A DNA stretch of 64,000 bases from Bacilli bacterium (GTDB lineage Bacteria > Bacillota_I > Bacilli_A > RFN20 > CAG-826). The stretch lies in contig JAZQOV010000011.1 in assembly GCA_045628045.1 (NCBI GenBank), positions 4,912-68,911 of the forward strand, written 5' to 3'. Shown in pieces: positions 10,456 to 51,993 of the stretch. A program made the translations under genes and the position numbers. Each line of letters opens with the position of its first letter. Positions within the stretch are counted from its first letter, which is position 1. Under the pieces are notes generated by a model. It was not told the DNA's origin, did not search any database, and saw only the letters and a list, made by a program, of their open reading frames with translations.

Positions 10456-11802
10456 ATGAAATTTGATCATGTTACTGGAAAGTGCGTTGATCTTTCCTTT
10501 GAAGGGAAAGGCGTTGTAAAGCTTTCGTATGGAACAGTTTTTGTTGATGGCTTATTCCCTGGTGAAGAAGCTGAAATAGAAATTGAATATAAACGTGCTG
10601 GTAATTATTTTGGAAAAGTTTATAGATTAATCACAAAATCTCCAGATAGAATTCAACCAAAATGTGGTGTTTGTACTGCGTGTGGTGGATGTCAACTTCA
10701 ACAACTTTCTTACAATGCTCAACTTGCTTATAAAACTAAAAAAGTAGCAGATGCTTTTAGACGTAATAAAATAGAAAATATTGAGGTTTTTCCGTGTATT
10801 TCAATGGAAAATCCCTATGAATATCGTAATAAAATACAAGTTCCAATTGGTAGAGATCCTCATGGCCATATCGTCTCCGGATTTTATAGAAGTGGCACTC
10901 ACAAAATCATTCCGGTGGACAAATGTTGGATCGAATCAAAGGAAGCACCAAAGATAATTTCTGAAATCAAGAACTTGATGAAGGAATTTCATTATGCTCC
11001 ATATGATGAAGACACAAGAACAGGTCTTATTCGACATGTCTTAATTAGAACTTCACTTCACTATAAAGAAATCATGGTTACTCTTGTTACTAATAAAGAT
11101 GAATTCAAAGGAAAGAATAATTTCGTTAAAGCTTTAGTGAAACGTTGTCCTCAAATTACAAGCATTGTTCAAAACATTAATACGAGAGACACAAATGTAA
11201 TTCTTGGAGAAAAAGAAAGAGTCCTTTTTGGCCCTTCTGTAATTAAGGATTCAATACTTGGCGTTGACTTCTTAATTTCATCAAAATCATTCTTCCAAGT
11301 AAACCCTGTTCAAGTTGAAAATCTATACAAATTCGCCATTAATTTCGCAAATTTAAGCAAAGAAGAGAACATTTTTGATGCTTATTGTGGAATTGGAACA
11401 ATCTCGTTATGCGCATCAAAATATGTTAATAAAGTTGTTGGCGCAGAGATAGTTAAAGAAGCAATTATTGACGCTAAAAAGAACGCTAAATTAAATAATA
11501 TTAATAATGCAACTTTTGTATGCGGAGACGCTGGTGAAGTTTTAGAAACTTTAATTAATAATGGAGAAAAATTCTCGACAGTTTTTGTGGACCCTCCTCG
11601 TAAAGGATTAGATGAAAAATTTATTAAGCATCTTCTTGAGCTTGCTCCATCGAAAATCATTTATGTTTCATGTGATCCGGAAACTTTAGCAAGAGATGTA
11701 AAAATCCTTGCTGAAAAATACGAGATACAACAAGTTCAACCTGTCGACATGTTTCCGATGACATTCCACGTTGAGACTGTTGTTTGTTTATGTCTAAAAT
11801 AA
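10456..11802 (+). CDS. rlmD: 23S rRNA (uracil-C5)-methyltransferase, RumA/RlmD family
   Basis: TRAM-like N-terminus. Fe-S cysteine cluster CGVCTACGGCQLQ. SAM-binding DAYCGIGTISL, VFVDPPRKG, YVSCDPETLARD. Confidence 0.9.
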   Translation: MKFDHVTGKCVDLSFEGKGVVKLSYGTVFVDGLFPGEEAEIEIEYKRAGNYFGKVYRLITKSPDRIQPKCGVCTACGGCQLQQLSYNAQLAYKTKKVADAFRRNKIENIEVFPCISMENPYEYRNKIQVPIGRDPHGHIVSGFYRSGTHKIIPVDKCWIESKEAPKIISEIKNLMKEFHYAPYDEDTRTGLIRHVLIRTSLHYKEIMVTLVTNKDEFKGKNNFVKALVKRCPQITSIVQNINTRDTNVILGEKERVLFGPSVIKDSILGVDFLISSKSFFQVNPVQVENLYKFAINFANLSKEENIFDAYCGIGTISLCASKYVNKVVGAEIVKEAIIDAKKNAKLNNINNATFVCGDAGEVLETLINNGEKFSTVFVDPPRKGLDEKFIKHLLELAPSKIIYVSCDPETLARDVKILAEKYEIQQVQPVDMFPMTFHVETVVCLCLK

Positions 11803-11826
11803 CGATGCATTCTCGATGTGTTTTTC

Positions 11827-12711
11827 TTAATTTAATATTGATATATATTTATTCAATCTTTCCAATAAATATTTAGATATAAGTTTTTTCATTGGCTCAA
11901 GATTGTGCTTTAAATGAAATGCATCAAAAGCATCATAATAAGCACGTCTGTCGCTATATTTAATATCAATAGGTGGGAATCCTTGTTTCATTAATTCTAG
12001 ATTTAATAAGAGCCTTCCAGTTCTTCCGTTTCCATCAATAAAAGGGTGAATTGCTTCAAATTCAATATGGAATCTTGCTAATTTTGTAACAATATCTTCA
12101 TTAGATGTATTGTAGTTACAAATTAATTCATTCATTTTTGGTTCAATAGCATACGGTTGAACAGGTGTATGCTTTGAGCCCATTATTCTGACAGGGACCC
12201 TTCTGTAAACCCCTTTGTCTTGAGGTTGATCAGATAAAACCAAGGCATGTATTTGTTTAATTATACTTTCACCAATTTCAGTGTTTTCTTTCACTAAGTC
12301 GCATATAAAATCAAACGCTTCTTTGTGGCCAACAACTTCGAGATGATCTTTTAATGGTTTTTTGTCAATGGTAAGACCTCTTAGAACCATATCCGTTTCT
12401 CTTAGTGTTAATGTATTACCTTCGATGGCGTTGCTGTTATATGTGAACTCTACAACGAATTCCTCATTTAATCTTTTAATTTCGCCAGGCGTTAATGGCC
12501 TTTTAGAATCTAATATATTTTTAAGTTCTAAAATTTTGGATAAATAGTTTTCGTTGTTTTTGATTCTGCCATCAATTGGTTTTACGGCATCATCTGGTAT
12601 AAACCACGTTTTTCCATACAATTCTGCTCCATCAATTTTGCCTTCTGCACAAAGAATGCGAATCCTTCTGTCAGATATATTCCATTTTAGACTAGCTTCT
12701 TTAGTATTCAT
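11827..12711 (-). CDS. Fic family protein (class II, N-terminal HTH)
   Basis: Fic motif HPFIDGNGRTGR. Inhibitory helix motif SNAIEG ([S/T]xxxE[G/N]). N-terminal excisionase/MerR-like HTH (KEASLKWNISDRRIRILCAEGKI). Confidence 0.9.
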   Translation of the reverse strand: MNTKEASLKWNISDRRIRILCAEGKIDGAELYGKTWFIPDDAVKPIDGRIKNNENYLSKILELKNILDSKRPLTPGEIKRLNEEFVVEFTYNSNAIEGNTLTLRETDMVLRGLTIDKKPLKDHLEVVGHKEAFDFICDLVKENTEIGESIIKQIHALVLSDQPQDKGVYRRVPVRIMGSKHTPVQPYAIEPKMNELICNYNTSNEDIVTKLARFHIEFEAIHPFIDGNGRTGRLLLNLELMKQGFPPIDIKYSDRRAYYDAFDAFHLKHNLEPMKKLISKYLLERLNKYISILN

Positions 12712-12730
12712 TATCGATTGCCTCCGACTT

Positions 12731-12789
12731 TATCGGAATAATAATAACACATATCGGAATAATAATAAAGCAATATCGGAATAATATTA
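12731..12789 (-). promoter_or_regulatory. three phased direct repeats TATCGGAATAATAATAA in the fic 5' region
   Basis: Copies start at 12731, 12752 and 12774 (third ends ..ATATTA), spaced 21-22 bp. They lie between a candidate TATAAT on the minus strand (about 12811-12816) and the fic start. Confidence 0.5.
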
Positions 12790-12981
12790 AAAATGTGTTT
12801 TTGTTTCACGATTATAACGATTTGGGATACGTACCTAATTTGTTACACCAAAAGTGTAACCGCGTGTATCGGTGACTAGTAGTAACACGTGATTACAAGT
12901 GACATGTTTGTTAACATCGAGGTAGGGTTGCAAAAATGTATGTAACACGGTAATAAAATGGTAATGGTTTTCCTATTGTTT

Positions 12982-13008
12982 TTGACAAAAATTTAGTTTC
13001 AGTATAAT
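12982..13008 (+). promoter_or_regulatory. candidate sigma-A promoter of the LRR surface-protein gene
   Basis: TTGACA (12982-12987) and TATAAT (13003-13008). The spacer is only 15 nt, so confidence is moderate. Confidence 0.4.
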
Positions 13009-13167
13009 ACAGTTATATGACAGCCACGTATAGGCAAAACACTAATCATACGTCTTGTTACGGTACATGTGGAGACTGTCGTTTCGTTAATTTTTAAGCA
13101 AAAATAGCAAATTGTTGTTGCTCCCTGCAATTTGACTTTTATATATTGTTTCTTTACAATTCATATT

Positions 13168-15582: not shown

Positions 15583-15607
15583 TTAAGTAATATAGGAGGA
15601 ATAAATA

Positions 15608-16525
15608 ATGAAAAATAACTTTAATAAGGCAGCGTTGTTATTACCAATTATTTTAACTTCGTGTTCTTTAGCGACTTCCGGAGAAAAAGCAAAAAATTTT
15701 TACGACAAAATTTGTGATGAGATAATAGAATTTGGAAACCCTAGAGATGATGATTTTGCTATTTCTTTCAAAGGTCGTTACAAAATTGGTGATGTCGAGA
15801 TTAGAAATATTGACGGCTTTTTCGATGGTAGATTTATAAATATTATTGGTGATTATTATAACGAAAGACTGACCGCAAAATATTATACATTTGATGAACT
15901 AGGCGAAAACGGATTGCCTTATCCATATACTTACTCATCTTTGTTAAATTCAGAAAATGAAACAGTTCTTGTTAGTAGAAGAAAACCATTTGATGGAATA
16001 CAAAATTATTGTGTTTTCCCGGACAAAATTGATGAATATAACGAAATTTACAATAATATTTTTAGAGTTTCGATATGTATAATGGAGTATGGATTATTTG
16101 CTTCTGATCGTTATAGTGAAGAATCGCTCAAACAAGTTTTCTTGTTAGCTGATGAAGAAAGAATTGAATTTGATTTATCAGATCGCGTTAAGTATAGTTA
16201 TGAAAAGAATGAAAATCTTGTTTTTACGATTTCTAGCGATTTAGATTCAATTGGGCCTTTTACTATTCTTTCTCCGGATCAATCAGTCAGATTTGCATAT
16301 TGGAATAAAATGGCAAACGGACCGACAGGAAATTATTGGAAGAAAATCACGGTAGATAAGAAAACATATCAAGTTAAGAAAGTTGAAGTTTCATATAAAG
16401 GAATTGATACAAGATTATTACCAGGCGCGTCGACAGACTTTTATTTTGAATTTGAGCCTCGTGAGCAAAGCACTTCATCTTATAAAGATCAATTTAAGAT
16501 AAGTTGCGATTCATATTTTGATTAA
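15608..16525 (+). CDS. lipoprotein, function unknown
   Basis: GGAGG RBS. Signal peptide with lipobox ILTSC. Confidence 0.7.
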   Translation: MKNNFNKAALLLPIILTSCSLATSGEKAKNFYDKICDEIIEFGNPRDDDFAISFKGRYKIGDVEIRNIDGFFDGRFINIIGDYYNERLTAKYYTFDELGENGLPYPYTYSSLLNSENETVLVSRRKPFDGIQNYCVFPDKIDEYNEIYNNIFRVSICIMEYGLFASDRYSEESLKQVFLLADEERIEFDLSDRVKYSYEKNENLVFTISSDLDSIGPFTILSPDQSVRFAYWNKMANGPTGNYWKKITVDKKTYQVKKVEVSYKGIDTRLLPGASTDFYFEFEPREQSTSSYKDQFKISCDSYFD

Positions 16526-16531
16526 GATAAA

Positions 16532-16560
16532 GCATCCTTAAAAGGATGCATTTTCTTTTT
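16532..16560 (+). terminator. intrinsic terminator
   Basis: GCATCC-ttaaaa-GGATGC followed by ATTTTCTTTTT. Confidence 0.7.
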
Positions 16561-16587
16561 AAAAATGGATTTTTAGAAAATAATTAA

Positions 16588-16617
16588 TTGAATCTTTGCA
16601 TCAAAATTAGTTATAAT
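16588..16617 (+). promoter_or_regulatory. promoter cassette P, copy 1
   Basis: TTGAAT-N18-TATAAT. Near-identical cassettes at 16857-16886 and 17439-17468. Confidence 0.6.
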
Positions 16618-16623
16618 ATTTTT

Positions 16624-16698
16624 ACCACAATACACCTTATGGTGTGATTAGTGATTAAGATCGGTGTTTCGACCGCTTAGTGCGGTGCCGGTCTTTTT
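16624..16698 (+). ncRNA. candidate sRNA 'RNA-A', copy 1 (orphan)
   Basis: Begins about 7 nt after the TATAAT. 5' hairpin CACAATACACC/GGTGTGATTAGTG. GC-rich nested hairpin GATCGG..ACCGC-ttagt-GCGGT..CCGGTC followed by T5. No plausible ORF. Confidence 0.5.
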
Positions 16699-16759
16699 CT
16701 TTCCGGATAAAGTTTATATATTGTATTTTACATAATATTATTCTTTGTTATAATAATGA

Positions 16760-16828
16760 TGCGGTTGCGATAAAAGGCTTATGCCTCGCAGTGCAATTAG
16801 GGCACCTTAATGGCAGCCTTTTTCTTTT
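16760..16828 (+). ncRNA. candidate sRNA 'RNA-B'
   Basis: Own promoter TTTACA (16727-16732), N16, TGtTATAAT (16746-16754). GC-rich alternative helices (TGCGA/TCGCA, GTGC/GCAC, AAAAGGCT../..AGCCTTTT). T-runs on both sides, so it may act as a bidirectional terminator. Confidence 0.35.
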
Positions 16829-16856
16829 TAAAAATAATATTTTAGAAAATAATGAA

Positions 16857-16886
16857 TTGAATTTTTACATCAAAATTAGTTATAAT
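16857..16886 (+). promoter_or_regulatory. promoter cassette P, copy 2
   Basis: TTGAAT-N18-TATAAT, near-identical to copy 1. Confidence 0.6.
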
Positions 16887-16892
16887 ATTTTT

Positions 16893-16968
16893 ACCACAAT
16901 ACACCTTATGGTGTGATTAGTGATAAAGATCGGTGTTTCGACCGCTTAGCGCGGTGCCGGTCTTTTTT
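16893..16968 (+). ncRNA. candidate sRNA 'RNA-A', copy 2, antisense to the 3' end of the minus-strand ORF 16917-17312
   Basis: Same hairpins as copy 1, with differences confined to the linker, loop and T-run. Overlaps the stop codon and last ~17 codons of the convergent gene. Confidence 0.5.
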
Positions 16969-17312
16969 CTTTCTAGATAAAGTTCATATATTGTATCTGA
17001 CTTAAGAACATCCTTTTTGGACAACCCCCTTTTTATGTACTTCTCGCTATAGGTTTTCGCAGGGTAACTCCTAATTCTTTGTATAAAATAACTCTGCAAC
17101 GAATTATTTACTTTAAATGGTTTACATAACTTCGTATTTGCCTTGCCTTCCGAATAAGGCTTTGAAGTCAAAAAAACACTTGATAAGATTAGCCCATCTT
17201 TTGTAGCTATAATTGCTTTAATGTGGCCATAATGTCCATGTTTATAATTATAACGAATTTGCCCAATTCTATAATTTCTTCCGATATTGATTTTAATAAT
17301 TTGTTTGCACAT
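16917..17312 (-). CDS. PemK/MazF-like (SH3-fold) putative toxin, no adjacent protein antitoxin
   Basis: AAGGAG RBS. Pattern match by eye to the MazF/Kid layout: IGQIRYNY.., HIKAIIATKDGLILSSVFLTSKP (..TS motif), SYFIQRIRSYPAKTY...GLSKKDV. Weak, unverified similarity. Confidence 0.4.
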   Translation of the reverse strand: MCKQIIKINIGRNYRIGQIRYNYKHGHYGHIKAIIATKDGLILSSVFLTSKPYSEGKANTKLCKPFKVNNSLQSYFIQRIRSYPAKTYSEKYIKRGLSKKDVLKSDTIYELYLERKKTGTALSGRNTDLYH

Positions 17313-17327
17313 GTTGTTGTCTCCTTG

Positions 17328-17419
17328 GGCTCAAGAATATTTTACCATCTCTAAAGCAAGCCGATTCCCGTTTTTCATAACATTTTAAAGAACATAGTTC
17401 TTTCTTTTTAAAATTCAAC
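17328..17419. repeat. ~91-bp upstream-region repeat, copy X (second copy at 51903-51993)
   Basis: Homologous by eye to 51903-51993. Contains the palindrome AAAGAAC-N3-GTTCTTT (17387-17403), a conserved CCCGTTTTTCATAAC block and a minus-strand TGnTAAAAT extended -10. Confidence 0.7.
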
Positions 17420-17438
17420 ATTTTTAGAAAACAATGAA

Positions 17439-17468
17439 TTGAATTTTTTCATCAAAATTAGTTATAAT
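17439..17468 (+). promoter_or_regulatory. promoter cassette P, copy 3 (drives the SAM riboswitch)
   Basis: TTGAAT (17439-17444), N18, TATAAT (17463-17468). Flanks are homologous to copies 1 and 2 up to ..TATAATATTTTTACCA. Confidence 0.6.
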
Positions 17469-17474
17469 ATTTTT

Positions 17475-17600
17475 ACCATAAAGAGTACGGCGAGGGACAA
17501 GCCCTATGACCCGTCAGCAACCTGCGTATAGCAAGGTGCTAAAGCTTGACTGATGGTTGTTTTTATTTTATAAGCCGTCAGTATCGATGGCTTTTAATTT
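17475..17600 (+). promoter_or_regulatory. SAM-I (S-box) riboswitch with terminator/antiterminator expression platform
   Basis: S-box core strings in order: ACCAT-AAAGAG..GAGGGAC..AGCCCTATGA..CCGTCAGCAACC..AAGGTGCTAAA..ATGGT. Terminator AAGCCGTC-agtatc-GATGGCTT followed by TTTAATTT (17572-17600). ACTGATGG (17549-17556) can instead pair with CCGTCAGT (17575-17582) as an antiterminator. Confidence 0.8.
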
Positions 17601-17625
17601 CTTTGTGGTAGATAAGGAGGCTTAT

Positions 17626-17880
17626 ATGCCACAGAAAACATTACAAAACGATCTTTACGTAGTCGTTATCTCTTCTAAAGAAGAAAGAGATGAACTTAAA
17701 GCATTATGCGTAAAACATAACATTCCTCTTCTTTATCCAGAGTTATTTAAGGAAGAGGAGATTCATCACTTATGGGGAATCTCTAAAAACGGTGTTGCTT
17801 TAGTGGGCACAATGATTGCAAGACATACACCTAAAGAGAATATATTTCATTCTGTTAAAGAACTGGAATGTATTCTCTAA
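17626..17880 (+). CDS. 84-aa protein of unknown function under SAM-riboswitch control
   Basis: ATG at 17626 preceded by AAGGAGG. The track start at 17557 lies inside the riboswitch terminator. No recognisable motif. Confidence 0.6.
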   Translation: MPQKTLQNDLYVVVISSKEERDELKALCVKHNIPLLYPELFKEEEIHHLWGISKNGVALVGTMIARHTPKENIFHSVKELECIL

Positions 17881-18043
17881 TATCTTTTCTTGATAGAGAA
17901 GCGTAAGCAAGTTCTCGTATAACAAGAAAAGTGCGCTAAATTTCAATCCTTAAATGTCTATTAAATTAGCATCACGGTTAACACTTGCTCGTATTTACTA
18001 GGGGAAGCGGTAGTTATCTTTTCTTAAATTGCGCTATTTCCTG

Positions 18044-49868: not shown

Positions 49869-49995
49869 CTACCCCCACTTAAACATTCTATGTTTAGAAG
49901 ATGGGGGATTCCTACTCAAGAATCCTCGAGGATTCAGTGTCGATAGGCTAACCCCGTAGTTCCTACGGTTTGGTGGACTACCACTATTGTTTTTG
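49869..49995 (-). ncRNA. candidate TnpB omega/right-end RNA scaffold
   Basis: Unusually GC-rich stretch abutting the tnpB 3' end. Minus-strand hairpins CCGTAG-gaa-CTACGG, GAATCCTCGAGGATTC and CCCCCATCTTCTAAACAT-agaa-TGTTTAAGTGGGGG, ending at the element boundary. Confidence 0.55.
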
Positions 49996-51132
49996 AAGTA
50001 CTAATCTAATTCCTTCTTTTTTGATATTAATTGCTGCATTTATATCTCTATCATGCTTTCTACCACAGATAGGACAAATCCAATCTCTATCATTTAATTC
50101 AAGACTTTTGTTGATGTAACCACAATCACTGCAAGTTTTACTAGACGGAAAGTACCTATCTACTTTTATTAATTCCTTACCTAACCATCTTAATTTGTAA
50201 TCTAGAAAATTGACAAAAGTTCCATATGCTCGATCAGATAGATTTCTGCCCAACTTCATTTTTGTATCTTTTGATTGCATTGATTTCAAATCTAAATTTT
50301 CTACAAAAACATAATCGTATTTATTTGCAATTTTTCTGGATTCTTTATGCAAAAAATCTTTCCTAGAATTTGAAATATGAAGTTGAAGTTTTCTGACTTT
50401 TTGCCAGGATTTAATGGAGTTTTTGCTACCTTTTTGGCATTTTGATGCTCTTCTGGTTAATTTTGCAAGTTTCTCCATTTCGTTTTGAAGATACTTTGGC
50501 ATATCTGCGTGATTGCCATCGCTATCGACATAAAGATGTGACAAAGAAAAATCTAATCCTATTGAGTTGTTGATATCAAGTTTTTCAAGCTTGTCGAATA
50601 ACTCGACGTTTGGATTATCTTCTTCACCAGTCAATGTCACAAAATACATGTTTGCAACTCTAGAGATGGTGACTGTGGTAAAAGAGAATGATTCAGGCAT
50701 CAAACGAGATACTACAACTTTAACTCTGCCTAATTTAGGAATTTGGATTTCGTTACCATCAAGGCGGAGGTTATTGTTGATTTTCATAGTTGTGTAGCTA
50801 TGATCATTTCTTTTGGATTTAAATTTTGGAAAAGAACCTCTATGTTCAAAGAAATTAATATACGCAGCATGTAAATGAATAATGGCTTGTTGCAAAGCAA
50901 CACTATCAACTTCTTTTAAGTATTCATACCCTTCTTTGTAATCAGGAAGTATTTTGACTAAATCAAATTTTCTCAATTTAAAAGAAGGATCTTCCGCGTG
51001 CTTTTCGACACACATTTCAAGAAAATCATTATAGACTTGGCGAACGCATCCTAAAGTTTTCTCAATTTGTTGTTTTTGAGAAGAATTAGGATAGATTCGA
51101 AATTTATAAGCTTTCTTTATTTTCTTTTCCAT
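49984..51132 (-). CDS. tnpB: TnpB (OrfB_IS605) RNA-guided endonuclease
   Basis: RuvC-like IGLDFS, VFVENLDLKSM, RDINAAINI. Zn finger CSDCG...CPICG. N-terminal YKFRIYPN typical of OrfB. Confidence 0.9.
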   Translation of the reverse strand: MEKKIKKAYKFRIYPNSSQKQQIEKTLGCVRQVYNDFLEMCVEKHAEDPSFKLRKFDLVKILPDYKEGYEYLKEVDSVALQQAIIHLHAAYINFFEHRGSFPKFKSKRNDHSYTTMKINNNLRLDGNEIQIPKLGRVKVVVSRLMPESFSFTTVTISRVANMYFVTLTGEEDNPNVELFDKLEKLDINNSIGLDFSLSHLYVDSDGNHADMPKYLQNEMEKLAKLTRRASKCQKGSKNSIKSWQKVRKLQLHISNSRKDFLHKESRKIANKYDYVFVENLDLKSMQSKDTKMKLGRNLSDRAYGTFVNFLDYKLRWLGKELIKVDRYFPSSKTCSDCGYINKSLELNDRDWICPICGRKHDRDINAAINIKKEGIRLVLQKQ

Positions 51133-51239: not shown

Positions 51240-51887
51240 TTAGATAAATCTAAAACCTGAGCCTAGTTCTAAAAGGAATTCTTTCATGTGCGTTATAATA
51301 CCTTTTTCAATTTCTTTTTCCCTAAGGTTAAAACCTTTTTTGAAGAAATTAATTACAATCGGATCTACCATTACATCTTTTGGTTCAACAATCTGATTCC
51401 CAAGAGTGGATAATTGATTCTTTTTTGCCTCTATATTTTCTTTTGAGCCCAGTAAGATTCTTTGATAGTATCCCGATTGTATTTGTCTTTTTAAATCCCT
51501 GACAGACCATCTTTGTTTTGCACACTCTATTTCATAGAATTTTCTTTCTTCATCATTTTTTACATTTAGAAGACAAAAGTAATGCCCCCATGATAAAGTG
51601 GGAAACAGTGTTTCCCAATTTTTATATATAATATAAAAATTTAACATTGCTTTAATGTTTCTTCTTGAATACCCAGAGCCGAATTCTTTGGTTAGCTCAT
51701 TAGAAATTGAACTAATCGTGCGCTTTTTATAATCGCTTTTTCCTTTATTGGAGTCGATGTCTTTTTGAATTTGTTCCCCTATATACATATAAAGCTTAAG
51801 TAATTCAGTATTAACGTTATATATGATTTTTGCCTTCGTTGTTTCTATTGCATTTTTTAAATTTATTACTAGTTTATTTTCTTTCAT
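51240..51887 (-). pseudogene. DUF1016/YhcG-type nuclease, N-terminal fragment
   Basis: GGAGGAGG RBS. WSVRDLKRQIQSGYYQRIL and ..FLLELGSGFRFI* match the DUF1016 N-region layout. The stop is created at the IS junction. Confidence 0.75.
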
Positions 51888-51902: not shown

Positions 51903-51993
51903 GGCTTAAGAACATTTTAACATCTCTGAGGCTAACTGATTCCCGTTTTTCATAACACTCTAAAGAACAAAGTTCTTTCTTTTGAAAATTGAC
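51903..51993. repeat. ~91-bp upstream-region repeat, copy Y
   Basis: Homologous to 17328-17419. Palindrome AAAGAAC-aaa-GTTCTTT at 51962-51978. Minus-strand TGtTAAAAT. Confidence 0.7.

Follow-up and report, generated by a model that had tools for sequence, protein, structure and literature searches.

The stretch of DNA analysed here (the window) is 64,000 nt of the Bacilli bacterium assembly GCA_045628045.1 (lineage CAG-826; contig JAZQOV010000011.1, positions 4,912 to 68,911), and it contains a short promoter-like cassette in three copies within 1 kb. Two copies lie in front of a small structured RNA, which we call RNA-A, and one lies in front of a SAM-I (S-adenosylmethionine) riboswitch. The three copies are found in a hypervariable interval, rich in defence and toxin–antitoxin genes, between a tRNA methyltransferase gene and a SoFic-like gene. 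Related contigs that were compared with the window are referred to as numbered loci (L019, L213 and so on). The features of the interval, in window coordinates, are as follows.

16532–16549, plus strand: terminator hairpin (terminator scan) of a 305-amino-acid (aa) lipoprotein-like gene (15608–16525).
16551–16627, plus strand: cassette copy 1, with a T-tract/TTTTTAAAAA, an AT-rich part, the −35 hexamer TTGAAT (16588), TATAAT (to 16617), ATTTTT and ACCA.
16624–16704, plus strand: RNA-A copy 1, an orphan without an opposite open reading frame (ORF); fold z-score −3.73, covariance model (CM) match of 102.3 bits, 97% identical to copy 2.
16727–16754, plus strand: predicted promoter of a second small RNA, RNA-B (TTTACA-16-TG-T-TATAAT; 11/12 with TG in the promoter scan); found twice in L216, with its −35 cut off in L213.
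16760–16830, plus strand: RNA-B, ~70 nt, an orphan in the window; fold z-score −0.80, no Rfam match.
16820–16896, plus strand: cassette copy 2 (repeat finder, promoter scan); its L213 orthologue differs at 3 positions.
16893–16973, plus strand: RNA-A copy 2 (RNA-A′); fold z-score −4.13, CM match of 104.1 bits.
16917–17312, minus strand: ORF for a 131-aa basic protein of a rare uncharacterised family (homologues 100, 78 and 71% identical), with the ribosome-binding site (RBS) AAGGAG.
17313–17420, minus strand: div element, the 5′ region of the 131-aa ORF, with RBS, leader, promoter-like TTAAAA-18-TAAAAT and a palindrome (17382–17398).
17401–17478, plus strand: cassette copy 3 (repeat finder, promoter scan); its orthologues precede the riboswitch in L019 and L213.
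17473–17603, plus strand: SAM-I riboswitch, with the aptamer (RF00162) at 17473–17559 and a terminator with T-tract at 17572–17593.
17626–17880, plus strand: gene for an uncharacterised 84-aa protein downstream of the riboswitch, with the RBS AAGGAGG.

The repeat finder reports the cassette as three 62-nt copies (16569–16630, 16838–16899 and 17420–17481), which all point the same way and each have 92% identity with the reference copy; the unit as a whole spans roughly 60–80 bp, and pairwise identity over its ~57-nt core ranges from 55/57 to 57/59. Its invariant 29-mer (CATCAAAATTAGTTATAATATTTTTACCA) occurs exactly three times in the window with 0 mismatches and is absent from 100 dinucleotide-preserving shuffles even when three mismatches are allowed, which bears out the claim of an earlier note on this DNA that one string recurs three times within about 1 kb. 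All copies share one layout: an AT-rich upstream part, TTGAAT, an 18-nt spacer, TATAAT and, ~7 nt downstream, ACCA. Each scores as a sigma-70-like promoter (TTGAAT-18-TATAAT, 10/12), with a distance between the −35 and −10 hexamers inside the required 16–18 nt. The cassette had been described as standing before three different RNAs; only two lie downstream, RNA-A (twice) and the riboswitch. The assignment of two copies to RNA-A and of the third to a SAM riboswitch holds, the latter scoring above the RF00162 gathering threshold, and so does that of a fourth promoter (TTTACA-16-TGtTATAAT, at 16727–16754), which at 11/12 with a TG extension is the best match in the region.

The three copies differ in how far their similarity extends. 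Copies 1 and 2 are embedded in one 269-bp repeat (16536–16746 versus 16805–17016), with 91% identity over 16536–16698 versus 16805–16967 and 81% from there to 16746/17016. Copy 3 shares with them the promoter only, from the T-tract to about +4/+7, ending in ACCA(y)AA, so the proposed stop of the homology at the transcript start is confirmed. RNA-A and the SAM riboswitch have nothing in common beyond ACCAyAA, and the flanks of copy 3 (the div element and the riboswitch) are unrelated to the flanks of copies 1 and 2. It is highly improbable, in our view, that a single tandem duplication followed by drift accounts for the locus, with copy 3 looking alike only since strong AT-rich promoters resemble each other: copies 1 and 2 do sit in a tandem repeat, and TATAAT and T-runs are common to AT-rich promoters, but copy 3 agrees with copy 2 at 55/57 positions, non-consensus bases of the spacer and upstream part included, which is far beyond convergence, its flanks are different, and the same RNAs carry different promoters in other lineages (see below). 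An assembly artefact at copy 3 is also unlikely, as L019 and L213 assemble the same junction independently.

Could the cassette be a dispersed intergenic repeat, similar to a miniature inverted-repeat transposable element (MITE), a repetitive extragenic palindrome (REP) or the end of an insertion sequence (IS), that inserted three times and has no role as a promoter? It is a discrete unit of ~60–80 bp with sharp homology boundaries, and the locus is rich in mobile and accessory genes (e.g. TnpB at 49984–51132, the Fic insertions, and IS elements in L020 and L021). The tetranucleotide TTAC is the target of IS608-type elements, and the right boundary of the cassette, TTAC|CA, recalls it. Against this, the 64 kb contain just three copies, which share one orientation and lie within 1 kb; in each of them a structured RNA begins ~7 nt after a consensus −10; and ACCA is part of both transcripts in lineages that do not have the cassette. 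The repeat finder detected no terminal inverted repeats on the cassette, and no transposase gene is adjacent. Nor did the collections searched contain real matches: scans with the exact 19-mer core over 185,579 GTDB species representatives gave chance matches only, those of JGI metagenomes (exact 21-mer) and IMG/VR (19-mer) gave only unrelated matches, and blastn against phage and plasmid records gave no match to the cassette (the riboswitch aptamer alone matched two phage records). Identity between the core-scan matches and the cassette in the flanks was at background, and most of the matches represent one conserved coding segment of freshwater phages. Given this distribution we consider a dispersed repeat very unlikely. 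The phage matches themselves (L029–L212, from IMG/VR and JGI) contain the 19–21-nt core by chance inside that segment (...CATAACCATCAAAATTAGTTATAATATCATTTATTTT...), a caution for scans with short exact patterns.

Comparison with related contigs places the same RNAs behind different promoters.

L019 (sister strain, 97% nucleotide identity): lacks the equivalent of window 15587–17425 and the Fic gene of 11786–13065.
L213 (sister strain): tRNA methyltransferase gene, RNA-B (−35 cut away), cassette–RNA-A, ORF, div, cassette–riboswitch; two cassettes.
L216 (sister strain): lipoprotein gene, RNA-A remnant without cassette, RNA-B1, RNA-B2, an ORF of 135 aa, div.
L214 (more distant): RNA-A with an RNA-B-type promoter (TTTACA-16-TGTTATAAT).
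L215 (more distant): TAGTTATAAT-GAATTT-ACCA before RNA-A, then the contig end.
L020 and L023/L024 (more distant): riboswitch that retains TTACCATAAAGAG, with upstream sequence unrelated to the cassette.
L025–L028: lipoprotein gene and its terminator, cassette absent.

The cassette is thus found on RNA-A in the window and L213, and on the riboswitch in the window, L019 and L213. In L019 the single cassette directly abuts the stop codon of a DUF285 gene and precedes the riboswitch, and the junction has microhomology (AAAGGAAATAAT / AGAAAAYAAT). The lipoprotein gene of L216, like that of L025, has retained the native sequence 3′ of it, and in L216 this runs into a 5′-truncated RNA-A without cassette. 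Since different promoters are found on the same RNAs across loci, promoters and transcribed bodies have been recombined repeatedly; the left-hand joint is at the terminator T-tract and the right-hand one at about +4/+7 (ACCA). ACCA is present in both transcripts in lineages without the cassette: both RNAs natively start with (U)ACCA, the 5′ strand of their closing helices, so this microhomology is the likely right-hand exchange junction. The promoter swapping suggested by the earlier note is therefore supported, promoters and RNAs assorting independently across the related contigs. Copies 1 and 2 represent one segmental duplication or conversion and not two independent swaps. The presence/absence polymorphism that the note had proposed to look for in sister strains was found, with breakpoints at the cassette edges and short microhomology.

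The 29-nt core (spacer, −10 and start) is invariant in 7/7 cassette copies from the window and three strains. An alternative explanation, the second option of the earlier note, is that selection keeps the cassette identical as the operator of a dedicated regulator, with co-regulation of RNA-A and the riboswitch as the adaptive point. Besides the invariant core, with variable positions clustered upstream and just after the −35, the spacer contains a weak dyad on reading of the sequence (AATTGA..TCAAAATT). This dyad, however, is AT-rich and imperfect, and the copies have had little time to diverge: 1–3 nt separate orthologues and paralogues alike, in strains that are ~97% identical, so the spread is recent and an invariant core is hardly informative about selection or an operator. 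There are ~8 substitutions in total, and the fact that none falls in the hexamers is not significant. No candidate regulator was found, and the 84-aa protein has no match to a DNA-binding fold. We therefore regard a dedicated operator as unlikely.

RNA-A is ~80 nt long and consists of a bipartite 5′ hairpin, a short linker, a GC-rich terminator hairpin and a U-tract. RNA-A′ is convergent with the 131-aa ORF, which it overlaps at 16917–16973, and homologues of RNA-A were found at the same place, opposite the 3′ end of the ORF, in L213, L214 and L215 (i.e. in all homologue contigs fetched), with fold z-scores from −2.6 to −4.7. The 3′ terminator domain (GATCGGTGTTTCGACCGC...GGTGCCGRTC plus the T-tract) is nearly invariant across lineages. 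The inner 5′ hairpin, with pairing read from independent folds of each homologue, is formed by three differing and fully compensating pairings (ACACC/GGTGT, GCATT/AATGC and ACCGC/GCGGT), and the 5′-terminal ACCA pairs with a downstream UGG(U)/GUG in each lineage. A permissive Rfam search of 16300–18200 gave nothing credible for RNA-A or RNA-B, all matches other than the SAM riboswitch being far below gathering scores. A CM search of the window and related loci revealed no further RNA-A copies: two weak matches (E 0.19–0.39) near 42.1–42.3 kb resemble ordinary terminators. Three viral contigs matched in an exact 18-mer scan with RNA-A, presumably by chance. Two other identities were tried for RNA-A and rejected: a degraded riboswitch copy (there is no sequence similarity to the riboswitch) and an IS605 omega-RNA (tnpB is not adjacent).

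The ORF opposite RNA-A′ was overlooked in the earlier note (minus strand, 16917–17312). We regard it as a real gene. Its product is basic and hydrophilic (isoelectric point, pI, 10.0; grand average of hydropathy, GRAVY, −0.63), has no match in Pfam, PADLOC, PHROG or PDB, and belongs to a family with only 12 clusters among 1.84 billion representative proteins (profile search). The last ~18 codons of the ORF are antisense to the terminator domain of RNA-A′, and it is this end that is conserved at the nucleotide level: codons 113–129 are 92–96% identical between lineages versus 67–73% for codons 1–112, and in the overlap 14/14 and 15/17 codons agree at synonymous third positions, versus 49/86 and 39/75 elsewhere. 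Such frozen synonymous sites indicate that this DNA is under a second constraint. Distant members of the family stop at about residue 117 and have no such tail, which suggests that the 131-aa ORF reads through into the RNA gene.

These observations also bear on the possibility that RNA-A is not a functional small RNA (sRNA) but the product of a fortuitous promoter in front of a hairpin whose main role is structural or terminating, at the end of the 131-aa gene. The best conserved part of RNA-A is indeed the hairpin that it has in common with the 3′ end of the ORF, and orphan copies (copy 1 of the window and the L216 remnant) could be decaying debris. But the hairpin is inside the ORF, upstream of the stop codon, and a T-tract follows it on the plus strand only, so it would terminate RNA-A and not the 131-aa ORF; moreover, three lineages whose proteins differ by 22–30% have all retained promoter-like sequence and a compensating 5′ hairpin, and the synonymous sites in the overlap are frozen. 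We find this possibility quite unlikely, and predict that RNA-A is a conserved convergent cis-antisense RNA of the 131-aa ORF, a point that the first description had missed.

In L214 (reverse strand) the module of RNA-A and the 131-aa ORF is bracketed by a 24-nt direct repeat, TTCAAACATTTTCGCAAGTTTCAT (~943–920 and ~142–119), and adjoins, at the contig end, the apparent 3′ portion of a tRNA-Leu gene (not called by ARAGORN, probably because it is truncated). The direct repeats suggest that the module can insert as a unit.

The riboswitch downstream of cassette copy 3 is a full-length match to RF00162 (model positions 1–108; 51.8 bits versus a gathering score of 44.4), its orthologues score 48.8–54 bits, and a terminator hairpin with T-run between aptamer and ORF is kept in L019, L020, L023 and L213. 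The P1 helix of the aptamer starts with TTACCAT at the end of the cassette. The riboswitch and the 84-aa gene are kept together in other lineages, where the riboswitch always starts with TTACCATAAAGAG and the sequence upstream is different (L020, L023/L024), and their neighbours resemble defence or toxin–antitoxin genes: a SoFic-like gene (PADLOC, E = 4.5e-34), HepT/MNT and RhuM (L020), and an Eco57I-like gene (L022). We also observed that the 5′ end of the riboswitch transcript, ACCAUAAAGA (17475–17485), can pair with UCUUUGUGGU (17598–17608), just upstream of the RBS. RNAalifold finds the pairing conserved in five sequences, and the read-through form may contain it as a long-range helix.

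A hairpin plus TTTCTTTTTAAAA had been noted immediately before each cassette copy, and this is literally so, but the hairpins are of three different kinds. The first terminates the lipoprotein-like gene, and its T-tract, ATTTTCTTT, is the left junction of copy 1; L025 and L216 have the same hairpin and ATTTTCTTT, and continue from there into native flank that is unrelated. The second (~16800–16819) is the weak 3′ hairpin of RNA-B. The third (17382–17398) is a perfect palindrome, AAAGAAC-ATA-GTTCTTT, within the div element, and is predicted to be the operator-like palindrome of a divergent promoter rather than a terminator; the promoter scan places the minus-strand promoter-like site of div at 17411–17382. 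This element, ~100 nt long with a palindrome of the form AAAGAAC-nnn-GTTCTTT across copies, is repeated at 51903–51990 of the window (86%), upstream of a truncated DUF1016/YhcG gene, and is found in L020 (5428–5540) upstream of a RhuM gene and in L216 (4829–4910) upstream of the 135-aa ORF. It is thus the 5′ region of four different minus-strand genes (those for the 131-aa protein, the truncated DUF1016/YhcG protein, RhuM and the 135-aa protein), and from this distribution we class it as a second reused regulatory module, possibly with an operator. Because the genes behind div are on the minus strand, div and cassette copy 3 together make up a divergent promoter region, arranged back to back.

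Taking these results together, we think it probable that a lineage-specific promoter was locally duplicated and recombined onto RNA-A and the SAM-I riboswitch, and that RNA-A is cis-antisense to the 131-aa ORF. The cassette would be a lineage-specific sigma-70-type promoter that fires at the A of ACCA, ~7 nt past TATAAT. By local duplication and illegitimate or homologous recombination in the hypervariable island, the same promoter sequence would have come to drive two unrelated transcripts, RNA-A and the SAM-I leader gating the 84-aa protein. The 131-aa ORF would be transcribed from div, back to back with cassette copy 3, and RNA-A would lower its expression, either through a duplex of at least 54 nt with the mRNA 3′ end or through transcriptional collision; the orphan RNA-A copy 1 may add dosage in trans. 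With a promoter in common, RNA-A and the riboswitch gene would receive one transcriptional input, to which the riboswitch would add control by SAM. The sharing may be adaptive or a by-product of recombination, and we favour neither option.

Several points weigh against parts of this proposal. Promoter activity and start sites are predictions from consensus matches, and the region has 15 sigma-70-like sites versus 11.7 expected, so the promoter match alone is weak evidence. The direction of transfer is ambiguous: copies 1 and 2 contain TTTCTTTTTAAAA, which is common with div and would make copy 3 the donor, and TAGTTATAAT..TTTACCA before RNA-A in the distant L215 would make RNA-A the original owner. 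The covariation in RNA-A comes from three distinct lineages, with L215 out of structural register in the MAFFT and CM alignments, and the conservation of the overlap could partly come from constraint on the protein tail, though distant members are without that tail. The collection scans required exact 19- or 21-mers and would miss diverged copies, and the copy count for the source genome covers 64 kb of a contig of ~137 kb, so further cassette copies elsewhere are possible. Finally, the 131-aa protein is basic (pI 10.0), hydrophilic and neither small nor hydrophobic, unlike classical type I toxins, and any function as a toxin would be putative.

RNA-B, the second sRNA of the locus, is weakly structured (its z-score of −0.80 is not significant). 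A diverged paralogue, RNA-B2, lies in tandem with it in L216 (4255–4445), behind the same promoter. Convergent with RNA-B2 is an ORF for a basic protein of 135 aa (L216 4421–4828; pI of the protein 10.2), whose stop codon falls within the terminator loop of that RNA and which carries the div element upstream. The 131-aa and 135-aa proteins have no detectable sequence similarity; the arrangement of RNA-B2, the 135-aa ORF and div resembles that of RNA-A, the 131-aa ORF and div, and hence the island holds two analogous modules of an sRNA, a convergent ORF and div. The window and L216 carry different modules of this kind at the same place, and RNA-A copy 1 and RNA-B of the window look like orphan sRNA genes left from earlier module turnover.

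Reuse of promoters has been documented as putative mobile promoters (Matus-Garcia, Nijveen & van Passel 2012, PMC3488235; PMC3575422), defined as upstream segments of 50–100 nt with at least 80% identity and non-homologous downstream units, outside of IS elements, MITEs and coding sequences (PMC3488235). The cassette, with 62 nt and 92% identity, has the length and identity of this class and precedes both RNA-A and a riboswitch leader, and we regard it as a new instance of this already known promoter reuse. It differs in that the downstream units are non-coding RNAs and not coding sequences, that all copies are within 1 kb of one hypervariable island, that the homology takes in the first 4–7 transcribed bases, and that the rearrangements are seen directly by strain comparison. 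The newer content is in the antisense sRNA/ORF modules and the riboswitch-gated 84-aa gene, which we put forward as hypotheses.

Antisense control through a 3′ overlap is documented in Bacillus subtilis (RatA, SR4 and SR6; PMC6562991), where type I toxin–antitoxin systems with 3′-end overlap include txpA/RatA, bsrG/SR4, bsrE/SR5 and yonT/SR6 (PMC6562991, PMC3834814, PMC5848175). The pair of RNA-A and the 131-aa ORF is similar to these in having a convergent sRNA with its own predicted promoter and terminator, complementary to the 3′ end of the mRNA, and in its location in accessory or prophage-like DNA with orphan and duplicated RNA copies; the RNA-B2/135-aa pair of L216 is analogous in geometry. 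The overlap, however, is ~54 nt versus 100–140 bp in the B. subtilis systems, and type I toxins have fewer than 60 aa, are hydrophobic and are targeted to the membrane, with exceptions such as SymE (113 aa) and RalR (PMC6562991). Since the 131-aa protein is not a small hydrophobic one, the pair should not be filed as a type I member. A type III antitoxin was likewise rejected, on strand geometry: ToxIN-like systems have tandem short repeats upstream on the same strand, whereas RNA-A is convergent and occurs in a 269-bp unit present twice, and there was no PADLOC match. Multicopy sibling sRNAs are a further point of comparison, e.g. LhrC1–5 of Listeria and Qrr of Vibrio. RNA-A is similar to them in that near-identical tandem genes each have the same promoter and their own terminator; it differs in that one copy is cis-antisense and one is an orphan, and in that the promoter is also on an unrelated riboswitch. 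As for the riboswitch itself, an above-threshold aptamer followed by an intrinsic terminator is the usual transcriptional OFF switch of the SAM-I (S-box, RF00162) class. Its setting is unlike that of the usual SAM-I riboswitch: it precedes a single 84-aa gene in a defence-island-like context rather than genes of methionine, cysteine or SAM metabolism or transport, and in this lineage it has its promoter in common with an sRNA.

The surroundings contain further accessory genes. A Fic-domain gene (11827–12711, minus strand; PADLOC PDC-S04/SoFic-like) is in a strain-specific insertion (11786–13065) that is absent from L019, L213 and L216 and is bracketed by the duplicated ~30-nt 3′ end of the tRNA U5-methyltransferase gene. 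On the other side, an Xre-type helix-turn-helix gene with a YafQ/ParE-family toxin gene behind it (19725–20605) resembles a type II toxin–antitoxin pair; it is flanked by a SoFic-like gene (18156–19214) and a gene for a DUF2779 protein (20773–22908), which make the region look like a defence or toxin–antitoxin island. Farther away, an IS605-family TnpB gene (49984–51132, minus strand; OrfB_IS605 and Cas12f1-like TNB domains) abuts the DUF1016/YhcG gene (51240–51887), which is truncated within its PDDEXK nuclease domain.

A possible but doubtful extension of these findings is that RNA-A/131-aa and RNA-B2/135-aa are two allelic members of an undescribed class with an RNA antitoxin (type I-like) or of an abortive-infection class. 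If so, the toxins would be cytoplasmic, basic and ~130 aa in length, with the palindrome-containing div as their common promoter, and orphan sRNA copies left after module replacement would act as anti-addiction elements. The promoter that the antitoxin has in common with the SAM-riboswitch-gated 84-aa gene would then tie the module to an accessory gene that senses SAM and accompanies defence genes, e.g. as a sensor of SAM depletion by phages. The analysis also flags several uncharacterised parts: two sRNA families outside Rfam (RNA-A and RNA-B), two basic proteins of ~130 aa, each with a convergent sRNA partner, and the 84-aa protein under a SAM riboswitch that travels with defence and toxin–antitoxin genes. 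With one, two or three cassette copies in sister strains, the locus presents natural promoter reuse at strain resolution, and it could be a model for the rewiring of regulatory modules in accessory islands.

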